NCBI GenBank assembly: GCA_964462685.1
Contig: CAYWYR010000001.1
Location: forward strand, 108,137-172,136
Origin: an uncultured Hyphomicrobiales bacterium
Lineage (GTDB): Bacteria > Bacteroidota > Ignavibacteria > Kapaibacteriales > UBA2268
Direction of reading: 5' to 3'
DNA length: 64,000 bases
The notes under the pieces are model-generated. The model searched no databases and had not been told where the DNA came from. It saw only the letters and a program-made list of their open reading frames with translations. Positions 5,702 to 26,216 of this stretch are shown piece after piece (the first letter of the stretch is position 1; every line of letters starts with the position of its first letter). Position numbers and translations under genes: made by a program.

Positions 5702-6820
5702 ATGTCTGATCTAAATTTTCTCTTGCTTGAAACCGGTGTTAAGGCTTTTGTAGTCGTCAACATCATTCTTGCTCTCGCCTCAGGCGAGGTTTATCTAGAA
5801 AGAAAAATATCCGCTTGGATACAAAACCGTATCGGCCCCAATAGGGTAGGGCCATTAGGCTTATTACAGCCCATAGCCGATGTTGTAAAACTATTCTTCA
5901 AAGAGGATGTAGTCCCGAAGGCGGCACATCAAGGCTTTCACCTTCTGGCACCGATGCTCTCTCTTGCTGTTGCTGTAGGTGTTTACGCGGTGATCCCTTA
6001 TGGCCATTATCTGGAGTTTGAAGTAGGTGATACTATCAGGCGAGTATATATGGGTCTGGCGCCAAATATCAACGTTGGTGCTCTGTTCATCTTAGCTATG
6101 ACTTCAGTCGGTGTTTATGGGATTACGATAGCCGGGTGGGCATCCAATTCCAAATATTCACTTCTCGGTGGATTGCGTTCGGCCGCACAGATGATTTCCT
6201 ATGAACTTGCTATGGGTCTGGCGCTTGTAGCCGTTATCATTATATCAGGTTCATTAAGCATGAATCAGATCGTGATTGAGCAGTCGGCATGGGGCGGTTT
6301 CCGTTGGAATGTTATACTTCAGCCACTGGGTTTCATAATATTTCTGGTATCGGCTTTCGCTGAGACAAACCGTGCACCTTTCGATCTACCCGAGGCAGAG
6401 CCAGAGCTTGTAGGTGGATTCAATACAGAGTATTCTGGTATGAAGTTCGGTATGTTCTTCTTGGCCGAGTATGCGAACATGGCTACGGCATCTGCTTTCT
6501 TGGCGATACTATACTTTGGAGGATGGACGCTTCCATTCCACGATCTTATCCCGATAATGGATTCAGCCGGTGAGATAATCAGATACGATAACGGCGAGTG
6601 GTTCGGGATTCCAGGTAATTCTTGGATTATAGGTCTGGCACAGTTTGTATGGTTCTTCGCCAAACTAATGTTCTTCATTCTGTTCTTTATTTGGGTAAGA
6701 TGGTCTATACCTCGTTTCAGATATGATCAGCTAATGAACCTTGGTTGGAAAGTACTCCTACCGTTATCAATAGTCAATGTAATAATTACTGCTGTACTCG
6801 TCCTATTACTTGACAGTTAA
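5702..6820 (+). CDS. nuoH: NADH-quinone oxidoreductase subunit H
   Basis: GPLGLLQPIADVVKLFFKED motif, a multi-pass membrane protein of about 370 aa, lying between nuoG and nuoI. Confidence 0.9.
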   Translation: MSDLNFLLLETGVKAFVVVNIILALASGEVYLERKISAWIQNRIGPNRVGPLGLLQPIADVVKLFFKEDVVPKAAHQGFHLLAPMLSLAVAVGVYAVIPYGHYLEFEVGDTIRRVYMGLAPNINVGALFILAMTSVGVYGITIAGWASNSKYSLLGGLRSAAQMISYELAMGLALVAVIIISGSLSMNQIVIEQSAWGGFRWNVILQPLGFIIFLVSAFAETNRAPFDLPEAEPELVGGFNTEYSGMKFGMFFLAEYANMATASAFLAILYFGGWTLPFHDLIPIMDSAGEIIRYDNGEWFGIPGNSWIIGLAQFVWFFAKLMFFILFFIWVRWSIPRFRYDQLMNLGWKVLLPLSIVNVIITAVLVLLLDS

Positions 6821-7434: not shown

Positions 7435-9033
7435 ATGAACAATATTAAATATTTAAAAGATCTCCAGACTAAACTATCACAGCTATATATAGATATCACA
7501 AAGAATTACTATGAAGCCTCAATTTCCGGTGATGATACTCTATTTGAAGCAAGCAGTAAAGCTCAGTTTGAATATGAAAAGGTATTGGCTGATAAAGGAA
7601 CATATCAAAAATTAAAAGATTTAGCCACAACAGAAGAAACTACATCTGATATTGATAGGAGAACGGCCAAAGTCCTGCTGAATGAATCGGAAGCAAAACA
7701 GATAAATGAGCCCGATCTTAAAAAAATGATCGATCTCCAAACCGAGATTGAAAAGAAGTTCACATCATTCAGGGCGGAGATAGATGATAGAAATTATACC
7801 GACAACGAGATTGAAAATACACTATCAGACAGCAACGACAGTAAAGTAGTCGAAGCATTTTGGAAGTCATCAAAAGAAATAGGAAATCAGGTTTCAAGTG
7901 AAGTATTAGAACTGGTTCATCTCAGGAATGCAAGTGCAAAAGAGTTAGGCTATGATAATTATCACTCCATGCAATTACAGCTAAATGAGATAGACCCAAC
8001 TTGGCTAGAAAATATCTTTGATGAATTAGATGAACTCACACGCCCAGCTTTTGAAGAAATGAAAACCGAAATCGATAGTTTCATAGCAAAAAAATTCGGT
8101 GTTGAATCTAATGATCTAAAGCCTTGGCATTATGGCAATCGTTATTTTCAGGAAGCCCCAGCAATATACGATAGCGGACTTGACACAGTATATAAAGAAG
8201 CCCCTATACACGATATCACAAAAGCATTTTACGACTCTATTGGGCTAAATATAGATGAGATGTCTTCAAATTCTGATCTCTACGAGAAAGAGGGTAAGAA
8301 CCAGCACGCTTTCTGCATAGATATAGACAGGGAAATAGGAGATATCCGTATCCTGTGTAATATCGTGCCTTCACACAGGTGGATGGATACCGATCTCCAT
8401 GAATTTGGGCACGGAGTTTATGACTATTATATGAATAGGGAACTGCCATGGGCGTTGATGACACCCTCCCACATCTTCACAACTGAAGCAATAGCTATGC
8501 TTTTTGGCAGACTTGCCGGAAACGCCGAATGGATAAGGAACAATGTCCCTAATGCCGAAAAATATAACGATAACGGACATAGCCATAAAGAAGCAGCAAT
8601 GGCACAGATCGTATTCAGCCGATGGGCACAGGTGATGTACCGATTTGAAAAAGATATGTATGCCGATCCCAAGCAGGATTTACAGAAAATTTGGTGGGAT
8701 TTGGTAAGTAAATATCAAGGTATTACCATGCCCATAGGCCGAGATAGTGAGAATGACTGGGCATCGAAAATCCATATCGCTACCGTACCGTGTTATTATC
8801 ACAACTACCTATTAGGAGAGATAATGGCGAGCCAACTGCAAGCCTATATTACCAAGAACATCAGCAATGATAAGAACCCTGGAAACTGGAAAGGTGATAA
8901 AAAAGTAGGTGAGTATCTAACTGAAAAAGTATTCAAACCAGGTAAATCACTCCGTTGGGATCAGTTAGTTGAAAATGCTACTGGAGAGAACCTCACAGCC
9001 AAATACTATTCAGAACATTTCTGCGATTTTTAG
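7435..9033 (+). CDS. Zinc metallopeptidase, gluzincin of the M2 (ACE-like peptidyl-dipeptidase) type
   Basis: HEFGH zinc motif with a downstream TEAIAMLFG glutamate 24 residues later. This parallels the ACE HEMGH ... HEAIGD arrangement and LP-x-AL spacing. Confidence 0.55.
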   Translation: MNNIKYLKDLQTKLSQLYIDITKNYYEASISGDDTLFEASSKAQFEYEKVLADKGTYQKLKDLATTEETTSDIDRRTAKVLLNESEAKQINEPDLKKMIDLQTEIEKKFTSFRAEIDDRNYTDNEIENTLSDSNDSKVVEAFWKSSKEIGNQVSSEVLELVHLRNASAKELGYDNYHSMQLQLNEIDPTWLENIFDELDELTRPAFEEMKTEIDSFIAKKFGVESNDLKPWHYGNRYFQEAPAIYDSGLDTVYKEAPIHDITKAFYDSIGLNIDEMSSNSDLYEKEGKNQHAFCIDIDREIGDIRILCNIVPSHRWMDTDLHEFGHGVYDYYMNRELPWALMTPSHIFTTEAIAMLFGRLAGNAEWIRNNVPNAEKYNDNGHSHKEAAMAQIVFSRWAQVMYRFEKDMYADPKQDLQKIWWDLVSKYQGITMPIGRDSENDWASKIHIATVPCYYHNYLLGEIMASQLQAYITKNISNDKNPGNWKGDKKVGEYLTEKVFKPGKSLRWDQLVENATGENLTAKYYSEHFCDF

Positions 9034-9055
9034 ATCTCTACTATGCTTCCCTCTG

Positions 9056-9166
9056 AATGACATATACAGCTCTTCAATTCCTTCCCTTGGGGGGAAGGGT
9101 TTAGGATGGGGTGTTCTATAACAAGGGGTTGCAACCCCTGTTGCATAGTATATATGACAAGACATA
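9056..9166. repeat. Dispersed intergenic repeat, modules C+B, in reverse orientation relative to the copy at 26428..26536
   Basis: The reverse complement of 26428..26536 aligns along about 110 bp (ctctgaatgac ... ccttcc-ggggaagg-tttaggatggggtg ... aacaaggggttgcaacccctgttgcata-tatatatgaca). It contains the 24-bp palindrome aacaaggggttgcaacccctgttg. Confidence 0.75.
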
Positions 9167-9243
9167 GTAACTGTAATTTCGAATGCCGATAGGCAGAAAA
9201 ATCCTCAATATTTACCCACAATTTACATCAAGCCATATTAAGC

Positions 9244-9274
9244 TTGCATTTTACTAACTACCTTATTATATTTG
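9244..9274 (+). promoter_or_regulatory. Bacteroidetes-type sigma-A promoter (TTG-N20-TAtaTTTG) upstream of rplU
   Basis: TTG at 9244-9246, a 20-nt spacer, then TATATTTG at 9267-9274, 44 nt before the rplU start codon. Confidence 0.5.
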
Positions 9275-9317
9275 TAGTCTTATTAAAACACAAACCACTA
9301 TTTTTGGTTAGATAGAA

Positions 9318-9623
9318 ATGTACGCAGTAGTAGATATAGCAGGCAACCAATATCAGGTTACCAACAACCAGACTATCACAGTTGATAAGCTTAGCGCTAA
9401 ACCTGGCGAAGAAGTTACTTTCGATAATGTACTTGTAGCCAATGACGGTAGCAATACAACTATCGGCTCACCATTTACAGGTGGGGCGGTAAAAGCGAAA
9501 GTAATAGAGCACGGGCGTGCCGATAAAGTTCTTGTCTTCCACAAGAAGAGAAGAAAAGGTTACCGTAAGCTTAACGGACACCGCCAGCATTATACTACTA
9601 TCGAAATCACTTCGGTAGCTTAA
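9318..9623 (+). CDS. rplU: 50S ribosomal protein L21
   Basis: MYAVVDIAGNQYQV N-terminus; about 100 aa. Confidence 0.9.
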   Translation: MYAVVDIAGNQYQVTNNQTITVDKLSAKPGEEVTFDNVLVANDGSNTTIGSPFTGGAVKAKVIEHGRADKVLVFHKKRRKGYRKLNGHRQHYTTIEITSVA

Positions 9624-9671
9624 GCTCCCGATTTTCCAAAGAAATTAAATATCTTATAAAGGTAAGCTAAA

Positions 9672-9926
9672 ATGGCACACAAAAAAGGTCAAGGTTCCTC
9701 CAGGAACGGTAGAGATTCTAATGCTAACCGCCATGGCGTGAAAAGATTCGGCGGTGAGCTTGTTATACCGGGTAATATTCTTGTACGCCAGAACGGCACT
9801 AAATTCCACCCAGGCGAAAATGTTGGCCTAGGTAAGGATTACACTATTTTCTCTCTTATTGAAGGTAATGTAAAGTTCCGTAAAACCCGCAACAACAAAA
9901 TGACAGTATCTGTACTTCCTAACTGA
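9672..9926 (+). CDS. rpmA: 50S ribosomal protein L27
   Basis: [17 protein letters not shown]-terminus; 84 aa. Confidence 0.9.
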
Positions 9927-10010
9927 TAAAACTTTTTTTTGGTTAGCGTCGTATATTAATATGCAAACAGTTCTTATGAACTAAATTTCTATAACTCTCC
10001 ACTTGCACAC

Positions 10011-10050
10011 AGCTTCGGGCAGTCACAAAGACCTCCGAAGCTTTTTTTTG
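10011..10050. terminator. Bidirectional rho-independent terminator between rpmA (+) and tonB (-)
   Basis: agcttcgg ... ccgaagct stem followed by T8. Confidence 0.6.
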
Positions 10051-10066
10051 CCCGCCGTTTCTTTCG

Positions 10067-10918
10067 TTAGTCCAATTTATATGTGATCGGTATCCTAATC
10101 CAAGATATTACGGGTCTGCCATCCAGTATAGCTGGTTGAAAGTCAGCTGCCTTCACCGCCTCCAATGCCGATATATGAAAAATTTCTTTACCATTCATTA
10201 CATCAGCTCTCAGTACCTCACCATCCGGACCGACTAATACGCGAACTACTACTCGCCCTTCAAGCCCTGCCTTCTTAGCTATCTGTGGATAGATTATAGA
10301 TCTGCTTAGTTTGCCCATATCAACTCCTGGCTCCTTGTCATAAGCTACAAAAACGGTCTCGTCAGGTATCTCGATAACATTGATGCCGTCCTTATTACCA
10401 TTCCCGATGCCGTTACCATTACCGTCTCCAAAACCGCCTGTCCCCAAACCGTTTGCAGTAAGTCCATCAAGCGTGTTATTCCCATCGCTGCCCATTAATG
10501 TATTCATTTCATCTATTAGCTCATTCAGATCATTATCCAGACCATCATCGGGTACAACAATATCGATAGTCGGTATATCATTCACTGTCGTAATTTGTGT
10601 AGGCATACTGTTATTTATAGAATTTTCAATAGGGGCAGTACTCTTTTTGCTGCCACCAGCATCCGGCTTTATCAGCTCTTTTATATCCTCCATAAAAATC
10701 TTGATAGGTTCAACCTTTTTGTCGAATGCACTATCTGTCGGGTATATCTGCTCATTAGGAGCTAACCAGTTAGCAAAAAGTCCGATTAATGCAGAAGTGC
10801 CGAATGTAATAATAAAGGCTTTTAATTGCTGCTTCCAGCTTTCTCTGTTCTGAGATGGCCCGCCATAGGGCATAAGGTTTTGTGGTAAAAATCTATTGCC
10901 GTCCATAATATTCCTCAA
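10067..10918 (-). CDS. tonB: Energy transducer TonB
   Basis: N-terminal TM anchor, a Gly/Asn-rich linker, and a C-terminal TonB domain (GRVVVRVLVGPDGEVLRADV ... PVISWIRIPITYKL). Confidence 0.7.
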   Translation of the reverse strand: MRNIMDGNRFLPQNLMPYGGPSQNRESWKQQLKAFIITFGTSALIGLFANWLAPNEQIYPTDSAFDKKVEPIKIFMEDIKELIKPDAGGSKKSTAPIENSINNSMPTQITTVNDIPTIDIVVPDDGLDNDLNELIDEMNTLMGSDGNNTLDGLTANGLGTGGFGDGNGNGIGNGNKDGINVIEIPDETVFVAYDKEPGVDMGKLSRSIIYPQIAKKAGLEGRVVVRVLVGPDGEVLRADVMNGKEIFHISALEAVKAADFQPAILDGRPVISWIRIPITYKLD

Positions 10919-10995
10919 TGATTACTTATTGTTCATATTAAATAGACAAACCGAGAGATAAAATGGTTACAGATGCACAGAAAGAGAAAACAAGT

Positions 10996-11025
10996 TTGAT
11001 ACAAATCGTATTTTCCTTATATTTG
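10996..11025 (+). promoter_or_regulatory. TTG-N19-TAtaTTTG promoter upstream of tRNA-Leu(UAA)
   Basis: TTG at 10996-10998, a 19-nt spacer, then TATATTTG at 11018-11025, 32 nt before the tRNA 5' end. It shares the TATATTTGTAG core with the rplU promoter. Confidence 0.5.
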
Positions 11026-11057
11026 TAGCTATTCCGTTTGCCACACGATCGGAAAGT

Positions 11058-11141
11058 GCCCGGATGGCGGAATTGGTAGACGCTCAGGACTTAAAATCCT
11101 GTGATGGCAACATCGTGCGGGTTCGATTCCCGCTCTGGGTA
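11058..11141 (+). tRNA. tRNA-Leu (anticodon UAA)
   Basis: GCCCGGATGGCGGAATTGGTAGACGC D-arm. Anticodon stem-loop cagga-cuUAAaa-uccug. Long variable arm. T-arm gcgggTTCGAttcccgc. Confidence 0.85.
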
Positions 11142-11148
11142 CAAAAAA
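11127..11148 (+). repeat. Direct repeat, left copy: tRNA-Leu 3' end plus 3 nt (candidate attL core)
   Basis: ttcccgctctgggtacaaaaaa recurs at 14534..14555 with identical sequence. Confidence 0.7.
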
Positions 11149-11195
11149 AGGGGAAGCTTTTAAACAGAGGTTTCCCCTTTTATTTTAGGGTCTGA
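11148..11195 (+). terminator. Terminator hairpin after tRNA-Leu(UAA)
   Basis: aaaggggaa ... ttcccctttt stem followed by a T-rich tail. Confidence 0.45.
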
Positions 11196-11596
11196 TGTTT
11201 AATGTTTAACTCCCTGTTCTTTTATCGCTATTAATTGGAATTTTTATTTGTTTCGATACGTTTATATTAGTCCAAGATCAGTTTAAATTAATCATCTAAA
11301 ATGCATTCAGTGCAAATATCCCTTAGTTATTCCACAATCATTATAATTATATACTGGATAATTTATTATTAGTTATTCATACAAAAAGATGAATAACAGA
11401 TTAATGAGTACATAAATAGAATTAAAAACTCATTACCAGACTAAATAGTATAAAAGATATTTATGCATCTTCTAAAGTCTTATTTTTTTTTTATTTTATG
11501 ATTAACTAAAACAGATTATAGATATATTTATGGAAACATCAAAAGTTGATGTGTTTTTTTTTCTATTGCTTTTGCAATATAATTAGGAGGTCTCAT

Positions 11597-12301
11597 ATGA
11601 GATTAAAGTTTTTTGTATCACTTATTTTAGTAGTAGGTGTAACAACTATCTACGCACAAACACCTGCTGTGTGTATTCCTGAACCCATCACTATCGATTT
11701 GGACGATTATCCAATTCAAGCAGATGACTTTCTAATATACGGGAGTATCGATGTTGTTGGATCATTTGATGCTGAAACGTGTGTTTATAATCTAGAGCTT
11801 GATTGGCCAGGATTTAATCCGTATAGCATAAACGGTAAGCAATATTCCTTTGAAGATGTCAAGGGTCTGTTGACTTTTAAATTTCTCGAAGCATTCTATC
11901 GAGATCATATAGACAATAAAGATCCTAGTTTGACATACACAGTCAATTTTTTTGAGAAGAAGTTTTGTACCTATAATGAGGTATGTTATTTAGAATTTGA
12001 AAGAAATGCAACAACCGACTGTGTTGATCCTGGATTTGGCGATCCTCCAATTTGGATAGAGGGTAATACCAATAGAATATTATCTTTCGTGAGTGAAGGA
12101 GGAACCTGTGGATACGTGTGCTGCGTTACACCAGTAACATTTAAACCAGGGCAAGGTAGCATAATTGTTGATAATATACAAATTCTGAACTCTTATCAGT
12201 ACTCTTCATTTTGTGAGCCTCCGGCAGAAACAGATTGTCTTACTGGTGAACCTTATGAATGTGTAAGTCCTAGCTGTGATTATGTAAAAGGGGGTAGTTA
12301 A
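11597..12301 (+). CDS. Cysteine-rich secreted hypothetical protein (islet gene 1)
   Basis: An AGGAGG RBS lies 8 nt upstream of ATG 11597. Signal peptide MRLKFFVSLILVVGVTTIYAQ. Sixteen Cys in the mature part. Very AT-rich upstream region. Confidence 0.5.
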   Translation: MRLKFFVSLILVVGVTTIYAQTPAVCIPEPITIDLDDYPIQADDFLIYGSIDVVGSFDAETCVYNLELDWPGFNPYSINGKQYSFEDVKGLLTFKFLEAFYRDHIDNKDPSLTYTVNFFEKKFCTYNEVCYLEFERNATTDCVDPGFGDPPIWIEGNTNRILSFVSEGGTCGYVCCVTPVTFKPGQGSIIVDNIQILNSYQYSSFCEPPAETDCLTGEPYECVSPSCDYVKGGS

Positions 12302-13758
12302 TGAGATCATTTTCAATTATGCTGCTATTTATAGGGATGTACTATTGCAGTTTATCTTATGATACTGATGAATTTTTTGTAAAAAACAGATTAGTAGTGA
12401 ATGAGAACGGATATATTATGGTACTCGATAAGAATGACCCCACTCCTGAAAATTTCTATTTTGGTAAAGATATCGATAATCTAGTCAGTGTGGATTGTCC
12501 AATGTATTTACAAGAAACAGATGATTTCATGTTAGATTTCTCTATTTCCCCTTCAGGAGATCTATATGCTACTTTAAAAGACAGCCTATACCGCTTTGAT
12601 GATAACTCCTGGGTTAGTTATCCATTTAGATTTGACCTTCCTGCACCCTCTATCGATGTACTTGGATTTGATGATGACAATGACCCCATCCTAGAGTTAT
12701 CTGAGGCATATTTCATTAATTCCCAGGGTACTAATATCCCAATTATCGTATCTATGGAAATAGCAAGATTTAAAAACGAGGAATTGCTCTATTACCCAGA
12801 CAGCCATCTGGGTGTAGATATTAATGATGAAAATATTATAAGATTCCCAAGATTTATTGAAGGCACTAGAATCTATTATGAAGCCGTTTCTCCCGTTATG
12901 GACTCAATGGCACTCGGTACGGTCGAGAATCTGTTCGAGGATAATCTCTTTATATTAGACAGAGATGGAATCAAAGAAAGCTTTAGGACTTTAAACTTTC
13001 CTGATAGTGTACCTGTAACTGCATCTTCTATTACTAATGTAAAAAAGGCAAACAACACTCTCTATTTTAATCATAGAAAACCAGTGGTTCAGATACCTTC
13101 AGACGACAATGCTAGTTTGACCAATATCTTTCTTGACAAGATGATAACTACGTTCGATCTTGATACTTACGAACAGGATATTATTAACGACTGGTCTGCT
13201 TTGCCTTCAATATATTTAGAACCAGGGTTCTCGAATATGTACTCTGTAGATGACAAGATATACGGAATAAACTACAATACCCTGTACACGATAGTAGGCC
13301 GATCGGTTAAGAATATTCAGATCGATATCGACAAGCTTATAACGGTATATCCATTCAGAAATGAATCGGAATATACAGAAATTGATATCAGCGGGGATAT
13401 TGCCGATATATCAGTAGGCAAGATGAAGGGACTTTTCCAGATGGGCGGGATGGTTTACTTTATTGGAGATTATGCATTCTATGAGTTTGAGACCAGTGCT
13501 ATCAAACCATTAACGTCGGTTGTGTCGGAAAACTCACAGAATCGCTTGGAGGCATATTATTCTAAAGGTGTACTACACTTCAAGAAAATGATAGAAACCG
13601 AAGCCTATCTATTCGACATAAACGGTAAGCTGTTGATGGAAATACAGGCAAATACTGAATCGATAGATATGTCACCATATCCGGTCGGTACATATATCGT
13701 GATGAAGTCTTTCAATACACCTCAATTTCAATCATTCAAATTTTCAAAAAAGGACTAA
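12301..13758 (+). CDS. Secreted hypothetical protein with a T9SS-like C-terminal domain (islet gene 2)
   Basis: A TAATG stop/start overlap with the upstream gene. N-terminal signal/lipobox-like segment. C-terminal segment (YLFDINGKLLMEIQ ... GTYIVMKSF) resembles a Por CTD. Confidence 0.5.
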   Translation: MRSFSIMLLFIGMYYCSLSYDTDEFFVKNRLVVNENGYIMVLDKNDPTPENFYFGKDIDNLVSVDCPMYLQETDDFMLDFSISPSGDLYATLKDSLYRFDDNSWVSYPFRFDLPAPSIDVLGFDDDNDPILELSEAYFINSQGTNIPIIVSMEIARFKNEELLYYPDSHLGVDINDENIIRFPRFIEGTRIYYEAVSPVMDSMALGTVENLFEDNLFILDRDGIKESFRTLNFPDSVPVTASSITNVKKANNTLYFNHRKPVVQIPSDDNASLTNIFLDKMITTFDLDTYEQDIINDWSALPSIYLEPGFSNMYSVDDKIYGINYNTLYTIVGRSVKNIQIDIDKLITVYPFRNESEYTEIDISGDIADISVGKMKGLFQMGGMVYFIGDYAFYEFETSAIKPLTSVVSENSQNRLEAYYSKGVLHFKKMIETEAYLFDINGKLLMEIQANTESIDMSPYPVGTYIVMKSFNTPQFQSFKFSKKD

Positions 13759-13759
13759 A

Positions 13760-14413
13760 ATGAAAAAACTAATTTTCTTATTAATAATATCATTTAGTAT
13801 TCAAAACATAGCTTTATCGCAAGCTGAAGATTGTGTACCGGGAAATCCACAATGGACAAATGGGACAGCATCATATGATAACGATGGTTATATGACAAAC
13901 AATATCTATTCTACAGTTGATTACAAATTTTCAGGTACTAATGTTATTATTGACTGGTTTACACTAAACAATACTAGTATAGGTGGTTGGATTAGTGATC
14001 AACTTGTGAAAGATGGTCTTATTAGTAGTATTGCATATTCATTGACTTCTGGATCCGGAACTGTAAATTTCTATTTCGAAACAGTATGTCGAAAACTTGT
14101 AAGGGCATATTATACGAGAGCACAAACATAAGACGAAGAATGTTGTCCTTCTAAATCACAAGCTGAAAAAGATGCTTTATTTGAAAGAATAAGTGGAGTA
14201 GATTATAGAGTTGCTACTCGGTGGGTGGATTGTGGTGTAAAATGTTGTAGATTGGAAGTGACAATCACTTCAAGCTTTGATACCTTTAGCAGCAAATGGG
14301 TATATTCATATGCATATAATACTTATTCTGTAACTAATTGTGATCCTGGTACTGACGTGGATTGTAAAGACAGGCCTGCACCTTGTGCAGCGGATTGTCC
14401 AGAGTATCCGTAA
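13760..14413 (+). pseudogene. Cys-rich secreted protein gene interrupted by a single in-frame TAA at 14129-14131 (islet gene 3)
   Basis: ORFs 13760..14131 and 14225..14413 share one frame. The stretch between them (DEECCPSKSQAEKDALFERISGVDYRVATRWVDCGVKCC ...) is open. Signal peptide MKKLIFLLIISFSIQNIALSQA. Confidence 0.35.
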
Positions 14414-14533
14414 AATGTATGTATAAAGATTAGGAACGGGTCATAATAAATTTGTTCCTATCTTATATCTCGCACAATAACGGACATTTATATGTTGCTC
14501 AACTATTTTTAATTCACTCAACATTAATAGCGT

Positions 14534-14555
14534 TCCCGCTCTGGGTACAAAAAAG
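14534..14555 (+). repeat. Direct repeat, right copy: orphan tRNA-Leu 3' fragment (candidate attR core)
   Basis: A 22/22 identity to 11127..11148. No tRNA body lies upstream of it. Confidence 0.7.
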
Positions 14556-14586
14556 GCTTCCTTTCATCCGAAGGGAAGCCTTTTTT
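14555..14586. terminator. Strong bidirectional terminator hairpin (3' of the 14619..15956 minus-strand gene)
   Basis: A 10-bp stem ggcttccttt / aaagggaagcc with loop catccg, then T6. Confidence 0.6.
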
Positions 14587-14618
14587 GCATTTGTTTTCTA
14601 GAATACTTAATCCAAGAA

Positions 14619-15956
14619 TTACTGCACAGCTAACCATTCAGAGTTGCCGCCGATAATTACTCTATAAAGGCCTGGTGTGCTAAAAGAACTGCGGTTGATT
14701 ACGCCTTCTCCGTTAATCATTACACCTTCAGTAACTAATTCTCCAGTAATCGAATATACCTGATATCCGGTAGCCTGTTTGTCCTCAGATACTATTGAAG
14801 CCTGTGTATCCAAAAAGTTAGGCGAAATACTGAAATCATATTGGGTTTCTGTTTGTACACTTATAGGATAACTATAAATGGCAATAGTATTGTTTTTAGA
14901 ATAATCTTCATTAAACGGCATTGCCATAGCTAAATTGAAGAAATTCCCGATTAGTCCCTCACCAAAGTGATCCGCTTGAAATTCTACAGAAACTTCGCTC
15001 TCAGTATCTATAACAAGTGTTTTCTTTGAATAAGTTGATACAACCAACATGTTCTCATTAATTAGCCATGCATCCCTTGGCCCCCCAAAACCTTCCGTAT
15101 CTGTTTGAATGGTCTGAACCAATTCACCTGTAACAGAGTTTATTCTATATATTTCGTGTGAACCGTTGCCGATAACATAAAATTCAGCCTCATCATTATC
15201 GTTTTCGGGGGCTAATACTATTGAGTTTGGGGTATTGCCTACCGGAATAGATACATAATCCCACGTGCTTACTAAGCCAAAGGTGATTTTGCCTACTTGC
15301 ACAGTCCAATTTTGAAATGTACCATCATGATTTAGTGTAGCGATATATAATTCACCGCTGTCGTCCCCACCAACAATATTCATATTTGTTGCGTATTTCC
15401 CAGCGTCTAAATTGATCTGAAAACCATTAACAAAAACACTTACTTCTGAATCTCCTACAGCATTACTGGTTAAGAGCATTTCAATAGTATTCACTTCGCC
15501 ATCTTCTTCATCTTGCAAATAGAAGATAGCATCTGTATCAATCTCAAAAGTAGGCTCAGATTCTAATGTTTGAGTAGCATAATCAAACATATAGACATTA
15601 CCGTCAGTCATAGGAATGAAAGAATTATCCCCAATACCAAATACATTGACTGGAAATTTTGGAAAATAACCATCTATTTCTGCTACTTGTTCAGGAATTG
15701 ATCCCCATTCATACTTCCAGATTGATGCTTTCGTATCTGTTCCTTCGTCATATACACCATCAAATTCTACATCATCCCCGATACATATAATATAAAATGG
15801 TTCAGAAAACTCATTATCAAGTATATCTTCGATATTACCAATTATCTTTGCGGGGCCTAAGCCAACTTCGATTTCATTATATTGATATACAGGAAACTGT
15901 CCTAAAGCAATGGCAGCCGTAGCCAGTAGTGATAAAAGTAGTGTAGTAATTTTCAT
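14619..15956 (-). CDS. Secreted hypothetical protein with a T9SS C-terminal sorting domain
   Basis: Signal peptide MKITTLLLSLLATAAIALGQ. C-terminal GYQVYSITGELVTEG ... GLYRVIIGGNSEWLAVQ is CTD-like. Confidence 0.5.
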   Translation of the reverse strand: MKITTLLLSLLATAAIALGQFPVYQYNEIEVGLGPAKIIGNIEDILDNEFSEPFYIICIGDDVEFDGVYDEGTDTKASIWKYEWGSIPEQVAEIDGYFPKFPVNVFGIGDNSFIPMTDGNVYMFDYATQTLESEPTFEIDTDAIFYLQDEEDGEVNTIEMLLTSNAVGDSEVSVFVNGFQINLDAGKYATNMNIVGGDDSGELYIATLNHDGTFQNWTVQVGKITFGLVSTWDYVSIPVGNTPNSIVLAPENDNDEAEFYVIGNGSHEIYRINSVTGELVQTIQTDTEGFGGPRDAWLINENMLVVSTYSKKTLVIDTESEVSVEFQADHFGEGLIGNFFNLAMAMPFNEDYSKNNTIAIYSYPISVQTETQYDFSISPNFLDTQASIVSEDKQATGYQVYSITGELVTEGVMINGEGVINRSSFSTPGLYRVIIGGNSEWLAVQ

Positions 15957-18025: not shown

Positions 18026-18109
18026 GCCCGGATGGCGGAACTGGTAGACGCGTTGGATTCAAAATCCAATGATAGCAATATCGTGCGGGTTCGAGTCCCG
18101 CTCTGGGTA
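18026..18109 (+). tRNA. tRNA-Leu (anticodon CAA)
   Basis: GCCCGGATGGCGGAACTGGTAGACGC. Anticodon stem-loop uugga-uuCAAaa-uccaa. Long variable arm. T-arm gcgggTTCGAgtcccgc. Confidence 0.85.
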
Positions 18110-18120
18110 CAAAGTAAAAA

Positions 18121-24395: not shown

Positions 24396-24433
24396 GGTGT
24401 CGAGCTACACCCTTGCTTTAATACCTGCCATAC

Positions 24434-25705
24434 TTATGCTGTGGCTTTGACTTTTATGATATCGGATAGGCGGGTGGTGTAACGCGGGGAAAGCAGTTCC
24501 TGCTTCATTCGCCAGCGGCGACCTGTACCATTGGCCGCTATGCGGATCAGATCACGCCGATCCCGCTGGTTGTGCTTGTCCATAGCTGCCATGATAGCTT
24601 TGTGGCGGGGATCCTCATTGGCAAAAAGGTTCTTCTGGCGGTTTTCCGTAGGGGTAAGCATCATTGCTACCACACCAGCCTTAGCATAGCCAAAGCCAGG
24701 CTTATAGAGTGTCCTCATTACTTTTTGGGCCATATCTGAGAGGTCGATACTGGAATTTGTCGGGTACGGCATTTTTACGATACGCTGAACATATAGCTGC
24801 TCCAGCGGGTTCTTGAAACGGCTGGTCCGCAAAAATACCTGCAGCATCAGGCAGTCGCTTTGCTGTGCCCTCAGTTTTTCGCCACACACGGAGGCATATA
24901 TTGATATATTCTCAAGTATCGGCTCGATATCGTAGAGTGCTTTGGCAAAAGAACGCGTAACGGCGGTCGCTTTTTTGTCGGGCGGCTCGAACTCCCACTC
25001 TATACTGGAGATACCTTTCAGCTCCTTTACAAGTCGCAATCCCACAACGGTAAACTTCTTCTTTACGAACTGCTCGTCCAGCTTGGAAAGCATATATGCG
25101 TTCTTGATACCCAGCCTGTCGAGTTTTTTGAACTGCTGCCGCCCGATACCCCATACATCGGGCAGGGGAAGCCACTCCAGAACGTTTTTTCTTTTGCTCT
25201 CACTATCGATTATATAAATGCCCTCGGGTATGATATGCTTGTTTTTCTTGGCATATCTATTGGCGGCCTTTGCTAAGGCTTTTGTTTTGCCGATACCTAT
25301 ACTGATGGGGATGCCAGTCCATCTCTCGACACGCTCTTTCATCTCTACGGCTAGTGATTCCAGGTTCTCCGGGCTGATACCCTTCAGATCCAGAAAGCAT
25401 TCGTCGATGGAATATACTTCTATGCCGGGCGCCATATCACCGAGAATACTCATTACGCGGGAACTCATATCCCCATAGAGGGCATAGTTGGAGGAGAATA
25501 CGGATATACCTTGCCGTTTGAACTCGACACGGTACTTAAATTCGGGCGCACCCATCGGGATACCCATTTTTTTGGCGAGGTTGCACCGTGCTATCACGCA
25601 CCCGTCGTTGTTGGAAAGCACAACGATAGGGGTATCGGCGAGATCGGGACGGAAAGTCCTCTCGCATGAGGCGTAGAAATTATTACAATCGACCAGGGCT
25701 ATCAT
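24434..25705 (-). CDS. umuC: Y-family error-prone DNA polymerase V catalytic subunit UmuC
   Basis: MIALVDCNNFYASCERTFRPDL ... VVLSNNDGCVIAR closely parallels E. coli UmuC. C-terminal MLSPRYTTR as well. Confidence 0.85.
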   Translation of the reverse strand: MIALVDCNNFYASCERTFRPDLADTPIVVLSNNDGCVIARCNLAKKMGIPMGAPEFKYRVEFKRQGISVFSSNYALYGDMSSRVMSILGDMAPGIEVYSIDECFLDLKGISPENLESLAVEMKERVERWTGIPISIGIGKTKALAKAANRYAKKNKHIIPEGIYIIDSESKRKNVLEWLPLPDVWGIGRQQFKKLDRLGIKNAYMLSKLDEQFVKKKFTVVGLRLVKELKGISSIEWEFEPPDKKATAVTRSFAKALYDIEPILENISIYASVCGEKLRAQQSDCLMLQVFLRTSRFKNPLEQLYVQRIVKMPYPTNSSIDLSDMAQKVMRTLYKPGFGYAKAGVVAMMLTPTENRQKNLFANEDPRHKAIMAAMDKHNQRDRRDLIRIAANGTGRRWRMKQELLSPRYTTRLSDIIKVKATA

Positions 25706-25720
25706 TTAGAATCAGATAAG

Positions 25721-26155
25721 TCAGAAACTTTTTATTACGTGCTTTACTATACCCCAGATCTTGAAGTCGCTCTCTTCGGTAACTTTGATCTTTTTATACT
25801 TGGGATTCGCCGGGATCAGCCAACAGCCGTCACTTTCGATCTTGATTTTTTTCAGCGTGAAATCCCCATCGACCGAACACACGGCTATATGTCCCGTTTT
25901 TGGGTCGATACTCCGGTCTATGATCATCAGATCCCCATCGCCGATACCCTCGTCCTTCATCGAGTCACCGCTTACACGCCCATAAAATGTAGAGGAGGGA
26001 TTATCGATAAGATCCCGGTGCAGATCGATAGCTATATCCAGATGGTCCTGTGCTGGGGAGGGGAAGCCCGCCGGTACCGAAGCCGCCAATAGCGGAATCG
26101 TCATCTTCGAGAGAATCTTATGGTATATAATATGTACTGACGGGGTTTCAAGCAT
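25721..26155 (-). CDS. umuD: UmuD-like S24 peptidase (pol V accessory subunit)
   Basis: Ala-Gly autocleavage site (VPAG|F), Ser nucleophile GDSM and catalytic Lys FTLKKI. Confidence 0.8.
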   Translation of the reverse strand: MLETPSVHIIYHKILSKMTIPLLAASVPAGFPSPAQDHLDIAIDLHRDLIDNPSSTFYGRVSGDSMKDEGIGDGDLMIIDRSIDPKTGHIAVCSVDGDFTLKKIKIESDGCWLIPANPKYKKIKVTEESDFKIWGIVKHVIKSF

Positions 26156-26198
26156 AAAGCTACCTAAGAGTATCGTTGTTCATATCAAAATTTAGCGG

Positions 26199-26216
26199 GT
26201 ATAATACGCATTATAC
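26199..26216. promoter_or_regulatory. Perfect palindrome GTATAAT-acgc-ATTATAC, 44 nt upstream of umuD; a candidate operator overlapping a -10-like TATAAT
   Basis: A 7-bp inverted repeat with a 4-bp spacer seen directly in the sequence. Its position fits the umuD promoter. Confidence 0.3.

Follow-up and report, generated by a model that had tools for sequence, protein, structure and literature searches.

Genomic islands at tRNA genes (tDNA islands) are recognized under the Islander criteria by an intact tRNA gene, a displaced fragment of its 3' end downstream in the same orientation and a required integrase gene (PMC4383910). Here we analyse an islet of 3.4 kb that lies at the 3' end of tRNA-Leu(UAA) in a 64,000-nt stretch of DNA (the window) from an uncultured bacterium, deposited as Hyphomicrobiales and placed by GTDB in the Ignavibacteria, Kapaibacteriales, UBA2268 (assembly GCA_964462685.1, contig CAYWYR010000001.1, positions 108,137 to 172,136 of the forward strand). 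As in tDNA islands, the tRNA gene is intact, a cognate 22-nt fragment of it lies 3.4 kb downstream with both on the + strand, and the GC content of the islet is lowered. Unlike tDNA islands, the islet has no tyrosine integrase gene, and it is only 3.4 kb long, with a single operon as its cargo and neither phage nor conjugation genes. Repeat-bounded tRNA islets lacking an integrase are known in outline, both as cis-mobilizable elements (CIMEs) and as decayed islands, and the islet taken alone is ordinary. What is new is a conserved three-gene module, here called A1-B-A2, an undescribed protein family encoded by it and the recurrent bracketing of the module by duplicated 3' ends of upstream genes.

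The term CIME denotes an element in which attL and attR persist while the integration genes have been lost (Guedon et al. 2017; PMC5704250). The islet likewise has attL- and attR-like repeats and neither integration nor transfer genes. However, CIMEs are defined as decay products of ICEs (integrative and conjugative elements) or IMEs (integrative and mobilizable elements) and usually stand in tandem with them, whereas the islet has no such remnants and no adjacent element, and its cargo operon is also chromosomal elsewhere; the missing ICE or IME remnants do not exclude decay. In the Bacteroidota, the 10K genomic island (10K GI) of Riemerella anatipestifer is bounded by a 53-bp repeat in which a tRNA 3' end is joined to a terminator hairpin, and it carries 12 open reading frames (ORFs), among them a proven NBU1 IntN1-like integrase beside the tRNA that alone drives integration and excision (PMC6764341). 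The islet resembles this island in belonging to the Bacteroidota, in lying directly downstream of a tRNA gene and in having a repeat that runs into a terminator hairpin; the long repeat, the 12 ORFs and the resident integrase have no counterpart in it.

Two further systems also bear on the comparison. In Prochlorococcus, islands bordered by partial tRNA 3'-end repeats reportedly contain no integrase; these are said to be tens of kilobases long, hypervariable between strains and mixed in cargo, unlike the 3.4-kb islet. Integron cassettes are promoter-independent, recombinase-less units bounded by hairpin-forming attC sites and mobilized by an enzyme whose gene lies elsewhere. By contrast, the hairpins of the islet are ordinary intrinsic terminators (a GC stem, a loop of 4–5 nt and a T-run), the unit carries its own leader, and the window holds neither IntI nor a cassette array. 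No attC-like feature was seen at the islet hairpins by eye, no attC covariance model having been run.

The duplicated 3' end of tRNA-Leu(UAA)

The segment 11149–14554 is best explained as DNA inserted at the 3' end of tRNA-Leu(UAA). The 22-mer TTCCCGCTCTGGGTACAAAAAA occurs in two exact copies on the + strand, at 11127–11148 and at 14533–14554. A first-pass annotation made from the sequence had seen this recurrence and placed the right copy one base too far on, at 14534–14555. The 22-mer is the sole exact direct repeat of at least 20 nt at a spacing of 0.5–8 kb within the window, and the number of matches expected by chance is 0 (100 shuffles). The junctions contain the following features:

11058–11141, + strand: tRNA-Leu(UAA), intact, its last 15 nt lying in the left repeat (ARAGORN; Rfam RF00005, 57.6 bits, model positions 1–71 of 71)
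11127–11148, + strand: left 22-nt direct repeat, attL-like, tRNA 3' end plus CAAAAAA
11146–11187, + strand: islet-side intrinsic terminator, an inverted repeat AAAAGGGGAAGCUUUU/AGAGGUUUCCCCUUUU followed by a T-tract (hairpin 11146–11181, -20.9 kcal/mol, z -3.4)
14533–14554, + strand: right 22-nt direct repeat, attR-like, a displaced tRNA 3' fragment lacking the tRNA body
14548–14587, no strand assigned: strong A/T-flanked intrinsic terminator (fold -27.1 kcal/mol, z -7.7; terminator scan)

ARAGORN extends the tRNA by one base, to 11142. With the Rfam limit, the repeat comprises 15 nt of the tRNA (the last 2 nt of the T-loop, the 3' strand of the T-stem, the 3' acceptor strand and the discriminator) and 7 flanking nt, which replaces the division into 19 and 3 nt first proposed. 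The attL/attR-type arrangement described in that annotation is otherwise as stated, with an intact tRNA and, downstream of it, the displaced 3' fragment in like orientation. It had also named a degraded independent tRNA gene as the possible source of the right copy, and this candidate is rejected because nothing tRNA-like precedes that copy: ARAGORN and Rfam (E ≤ 10) find no second tRNA there, and local alignment of the tRNA body with the 90 nt upstream scores 7.0, equal to the shuffle mean of 7.0. The only near match to the 22-mer besides the two copies is the 3' end of tRNA-Leu(CAA), at 18095–18116, which has 3 mismatches and agrees at 19 of the 22 positions; this gene and a tRNA-Val are situated 3.3 kb past the islet.

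Identity between the two repeat copies ends abruptly on either side, and beyond each copy stands a different terminator hairpin, with the A-run of the repeat at the foot of each stem. Two distinct terminators are to be expected from integration at a tRNA 3' end, since the incoming DNA brings a new 3' end and a new terminator. From its sequence, the islet-side terminator is predicted to end the transcript of the regenerated tRNA. The hairpin at 14548–14587 is presumably the original tRNA-Leu terminator; it is the stronger of the two and is shared, convergently, with a host gene of 445 aa (14619–15956, - strand), as the original site predicts. The product of this gene, which lies just outside the right repeat, is an orphan with a weak C-terminal domain (CTD) of the type IX secretion system (T9SS), and its GC content at third codon positions (GC3) is 0.28. 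The left junction is the same in a second, independent assembly (L005), and the window corresponds to a 215-kb contig of JGI metagenome 3300040801, with identical DNA also present in two further JGI samples and in one SRA run. Contigs of two other samples of the same population begin or end in and around the islet, at window positions 10820, 13193, 15321 and 15686 (L006, L005, L002 and L003), which could reflect low coverage or strain heterogeneity.

On an even balance of confidence, we favour the reading that the islet is a site-specifically integrated element of CIME-like type, with its integrase acting in trans or lost, and that its decay has begun. The recombination mechanism and the direction of insertion that we infer would be as follows. 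A circular DNA, bearing a 22-bp copy of the tRNA 3' end and behind it a terminator of its own, would have recombined with the chromosomal tRNA gene by site-specific recombination of the tyrosine-integrase type. The tRNA would thereby have been regenerated at the left junction, and the original 3' end with its terminator would have moved to the right junction. The integrase, which the element lacks, would either have acted in trans or have been lost, and it is for this reason that the islet is called CIME-like. Excision would be predicted to leave the junctions GGTTCGATTCCCGCTCTGGGTACAAAAAAGGCTTCCTTTCATCC (attB) and CAACATTAATAGCGTTCCCGCTCTGGGTACAAAAAAAGGGGAAGCTTTTAAAC (attP). This proposal is supported by the orientation and side of the tRNA fragment, which fit the signature of tDNA islands, by the intact tRNA, by the two different terminators and by the exact repeat, the only one of its kind in the window. 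Further support comes from the lowered GC of the islet, from the varied genomic contexts of its module elsewhere, from repeat-bracketed copies of the module at the loci L009 and L015 and from the precedent of the 10K GI.

The A1-B-A2 operon and its protein family

Between the two repeats lies an AT-rich leader followed by the three genes:

11188–11596, + strand: AT-rich non-coding leader, GC about 0.23 (composition; six-frame Pfam scan without a match)
11597–12301, + strand: A1, 234 aa, Sec-exported, Cys-rich (12 Cys) (HMMER family search; invariant Cys columns)
12301–13758, + strand: B-position gene, 485 aa, secreted, 2 Cys, weak T9SS type-A C-terminal sorting domain (PF18962 and TIGR04183, both sub-threshold)
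13760–14413, + strand: A2, A1 paralogue of the A2 subfamily, carrying an in-frame TAA (best matches L8_A2, 8.6e-24, and L9_A2)

The first-pass annotation had asked for a comparison of base composition, and the islet (11149–14532) has a GC content of 34.2% against 40.2% for the window, with GC3 values of 0.26 for A1 and 0.19 for A2 against 0.33–0.45 for reference genes; the GC3 of B is not lowered. The very low-GC opening stretch that it reported is confirmed (GC 0.23 for 11200–11599). The left repeat is followed by 448 nt of strongly AT-rich, non-coding DNA, and the leader within this stretch is presumed to be the promoter and 5' untranslated region of the operon. That the islet encodes no integrase or excisionase also stands: its ORFs have no recombinase domain in Pfam or NCBIfam, and six-frame translation of 11149–11596 against Pfam revealed no coding or integrase remnant. 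No recombinase or transposase is present among the called genes and the long ORFs checked over the 64-kb window, and no mobile element is found among the called genes within 10 kb on either side. The neighbours of the islet are housekeeping genes, including L21/L27, TonB, PdxJ, Der, ClpXP, Obg and PurH. At a distance of about 10 kb (c. 24400–26200) there is a umuDC-like pair, which encodes an IMS/DinB-family polymerase and a Peptidase_S24 protein.

None of the three islet proteins is assigned to a family by Pfam or NCBIfam, A1 has no match in the PDB, and a structure model of A1 (predicted local distance difference test score, pLDDT, 67) matched no known fold. The first-pass annotation had called the cargo unassignable; this no longer holds, as the first and third proteins are paralogues of one Cys-rich family and belong to a conserved three-gene module. 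An exhaustive HMMER search with A1 as query returned 12 cluster representatives, including the A1 of the window itself, and yielded about ten distant A-family proteins of 218–241 aa. Another of the 12, P0004 (2857 aa), was rejected as a family member: this LapA-repeat adhesin aligns with no more than an acidic stretch of A1, a match judged compositional. A1 and the read-through translation of A2 align as one family, whose alignment contains 14 invariant columns, 10 of them cysteines. The invariant pattern is C...DW...C...C...CG..CC...C...C...C...C, with the first Cys just after the signal peptide, and both A1 and A2 of the window fit it, in module positions 1 and 3. By its sequences, the A family is an undescribed one, absent from Pfam, NCBIfam and the PDB. 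In A2 of the window and in P0012, which occupies the A2 position of locus L009, a conserved 'CY' motif no longer has its Cys, and further along a 'CC' replaces the following conserved single Cys (compare L008:12179–12841); this correlated change suggests a re-paired disulfide.

Outside the window, the complete module occurs at seven independent loci (L008, L009/L010, L012, L013/L028, L015, L023/L024 and L025), plus partial contigs, all in metagenome-assembled genomes (MAGs) of Ignavibacteria/Kapabacteria type. The gene order elsewhere is always an A gene, a gene of about 500 aa with a Por_Secre_tail domain and a second A gene, and in every case the module is co-oriented with its upstream gene. 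Each A protein is closest in sequence to those that share its position, first with first and third with third, and A1 and A2 of the window conform to this; thus, the A1/A2 duplication and the gene order predate these lineages. The genomic context differs among L008, L009, L012, L013, L015, L024 and L025, and on this comparison of sequences the module appears to have changed genomic location during evolution. None of the loci outside the window has a tRNA beside the module, and none of the plasmid, phage and viral contig collections contains it. No leader, promoter or RNA motif is conserved across the loci, the leader of the window included. For pattern scans, broad A-family alignments were too diverse, and narrower ones gave 5 and 3 loci. 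Upstream of the A1 gene in one Ignavibacteria MAG, there is a tandem heptamer (AAAAGAC)n (L011:272–340).

The module proteins of the window are the most divergent of the family. The start codon of the B-position gene overlaps the A1 stop codon (TAATG). The first-pass annotation had described the cargo as secreted and Cys-rich, with one protein bearing a T9SS CTD. This is right for the cysteines of A1 and A2 and not for B, which has only 2 Cys and so is not Cys-rich, and the matches of B to the T9SS CTD fall below the cut-offs (PF18962, 16.7 bits against a cut-off of 27, E = 0.009; TIGR04183, 17 bits against 23, E = 0.004). Elsewhere, the B family combines a Reg_prop-type beta-propeller with a T9SS CTD, and all seven members (7/7) pass the CTD cut-off. 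Against the B-family profile (hhalign), B of the window aligns only over the CTD, in its last 110 residues, with 41% probability. Its body gives no significant match to the N-terminal profile of the family (hmmsearch --max) and nothing in BLASTP, the protein is an orphan in a search of 5.8 billion proteins, and its single-sequence AF2 model is unusable (pLDDT 33). The body of B has either diverged extremely or been replaced by a protein of the same size and type.

The nonsense codon reported earlier was confirmed as an in-frame TAA in A2 (14129–14131). A2 is otherwise an intact family member, and the mutation is recent, since all invariant Cys 3' of the stop codon are still present. For this reason, the islet is probably fixed in this genome and beginning to decay. 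Because two Sec-exported, disulfide-bonded paralogues and a T9SS-sorted protein always occur together and in fixed order, the sequences suggest that the products of A1, B and A2 may form a disulfide-stabilised complex at the cell surface or in secreted form, exported via Sec and T9SS.

Repeats at other loci and competing explanations

At two further loci, the module is bracketed by a direct repeat. In L009, this is a 35-nt repeat (32 nt exact) that corresponds to the intrinsic terminator of the giant T9SS gene lying upstream, and in L015 it is a 51-nt repeat (34 nt exact) that corresponds to the terminator of the housekeeping gene gcvPB. Each is the sole exact repeat of at least 20 nt at such spacing in about 20 kb, and neither locus has a recombinase near the module. 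In L015, similarity continues imperfectly past the terminator (9747–9773 against 12798–12824, 81%). The bracketed units of the window and these two loci are 3406, 3120 and 3154 nt long, and all three bracketing repeats overlap A/T-flanked terminator hairpins. When upstream flanks were scored against downstream flanks, the cognate pairs of the three bracketed loci scored 22, 32 and 36, and non-cognate pairs never scored above 19. The inner ends of the units have no common motif. A contig of 3148 nt related to L009 (L010, Logan SRR12363485) has the same 28 nt of the terminator repeat at both of its ends, and is either a repeat-bounded unitig or a circle.

Other repeats at the module loci are of a different kind. 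In L024, a promoter/leader of about 87 nt with the hairpin AAACAAAGATTTAGCTTTGTTT is present in four copies (2074–2116, 5878–5964, 9127–9213 and 11316–11390), and every copy adjoins the start codon of an operon for secreted proteins, a different operon each time and A1-B-A2 in one case; the element resembles a regulatory leader shared by the members of a regulon. In L012, on a Kapabacteria chromosome (OY762428), the module contains a recent tandem duplication (7927–12232) with a 214-nt leader 97% identical between copies and B gene copies 85–91% identical, and a third B-like 3' end lies upstream. In L008, a repeat of about 100–150 nt flanks kdsA (DAHP_synth_1) on either side (6689–6781 and 8132–8224, spacing 1443 nt) and may be a dispersed intergenic or MITE-like (miniature inverted-repeat transposable element) sequence. 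Since repeated intergenic elements are common in these genomes, what can be inferred from bracketing is tempered.

Several observations weigh against site-specific integration of the islet. The integrase is missing from the islet and from the checked ORFs of the window, and the AT-rich stretch preserves no remnant of one. The compositional deviation is modest, with an ordinary GC3 of 0.37 for B. An empty site and an attP or attB junction were not found: the viral scan for the core gave 0 matches, by which a helper element with the same att core was also rejected as a candidate, and the core with its right flank had 0 matches in a metagenome collection that does not include this sample. The databases searched contain no close relative: exact matches of the flanking proteins come from the same population only, and homologues of the adjacent TonB are paralogues from distant Kapabacteria-type genomes, one named Candidatus Kapabacteria, with about 50% identity (at most 53%) over the C-terminal domain, in non-syntenic ExbBD-TonB operons. 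Among the other loci, L008 and L013 are without any flanking repeat, the repeats of L012 and L024 are duplicated promoter-leaders and not att-like flanks, and the repeats of L009 and L015 terminate arbitrary genes, which an att copy borne by the element does not easily explain. The function proposed for the module derives only from its anatomy, and the A1 model resembles no known fold.

The main rival explanation is recombinase-independent duplication, which we consider less likely. Here, template-switching at a fork-stalling hairpin (a tRNA 3' end or terminator), or a Campbell-type single crossover at very short homology, would have inserted the module, and the repeat of 22–51 nt would be a stretch copied twice and not an att site. 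Such an origin would fit repeats that differ in length and sequence at each locus (22, 32–35 and 34–51 nt) and always represent the 3' end of the upstream transcription unit, overlapping an A/T-flanked terminator hairpin; it would also fit the lack of a recombinase in or near all three bracketed units and the imperfect similarity (81%) past the terminator of L015. On the other hand, the layout seen in the window matches integrase-made tDNA islands exactly, the tRNA terminator is supplied by the islet itself, and a general mechanism of this kind would be predicted to leave similar duplications at other acquired genes of these genomes. Integrase att repeats with terminators are, moreover, documented in Bacteroidota (PMC6764341), and because the att repeat of the 10K GI includes a terminator, the terminator repeats at L009 and L015 are compatible with integrase chemistry. 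The first-pass annotation had read the islet as decayed or minimal. The geometry, the low GC, the missing integrase and the nonsense codon agree with that view, but decay is only one route to the repeat: as the module is bracketed by gene-terminator repeats in two other lineages, a trans-acting or non-integrase mechanism fits as well.

The module itself might be a recombinase-less mobile cassette, inserted at the 3' ends of transcription units by a trans-acting, hairpin-recognising enzyme or mechanism that duplicates 20–50 bp of the target. We regard this as unlikely, and such an enzyme or mechanism would be one not yet described in bacteria of the Bacteroidota group. It draws on the near-perfect brackets of the window, L009 and L015 around units of 3.1–3.4 kb, on the constant orientation of the module relative to the upstream gene and on the low identity (20–35%) of the proteins of the three units, from which the three bracketing events are taken to be independent. 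The sample is small, however, no motif recurs among the inner ends or leaders of the units, the loci L008 and L013 lack repeats where L012 and L024 have promoter-leader duplications instead, and the module is missing from the plasmid, phage and viral collections. It is very improbable that the locus is native and that nothing was inserted, with the second 22-mer being a degraded tRNA-Leu remnant or a product of chance or assembly. The tRNA-Leu(CAA) 3.5 kb downstream, by its agreement at 19/22 positions, shows that tRNA-Leu 3' ends are alike here, and the module is chromosomal in every genome that has it. Nevertheless, the right copy is preceded by no trace of a tRNA body, the limits of identity are sharp, no chance match is expected and the left junction recurs in the independent assembly, while a 22-nt repeat would not be long enough to confuse an assembler at large k.

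Meaning of the module for Kapabacteria-type bacteria

The module occurs in poorly studied bacteria of Ignavibacteria/Kapabacteria type, where very divergent copies of it are bracketed, in three separate lineages, by fresh-looking duplications of upstream 3' ends. If this bracketing pattern is true, it would point to a means by which whole operons move without a recombinase in cis and with terminators as the target. Through its invariant columns and fixed gene order, the A family also offers a handle on a new class of T9SS-associated proteins.

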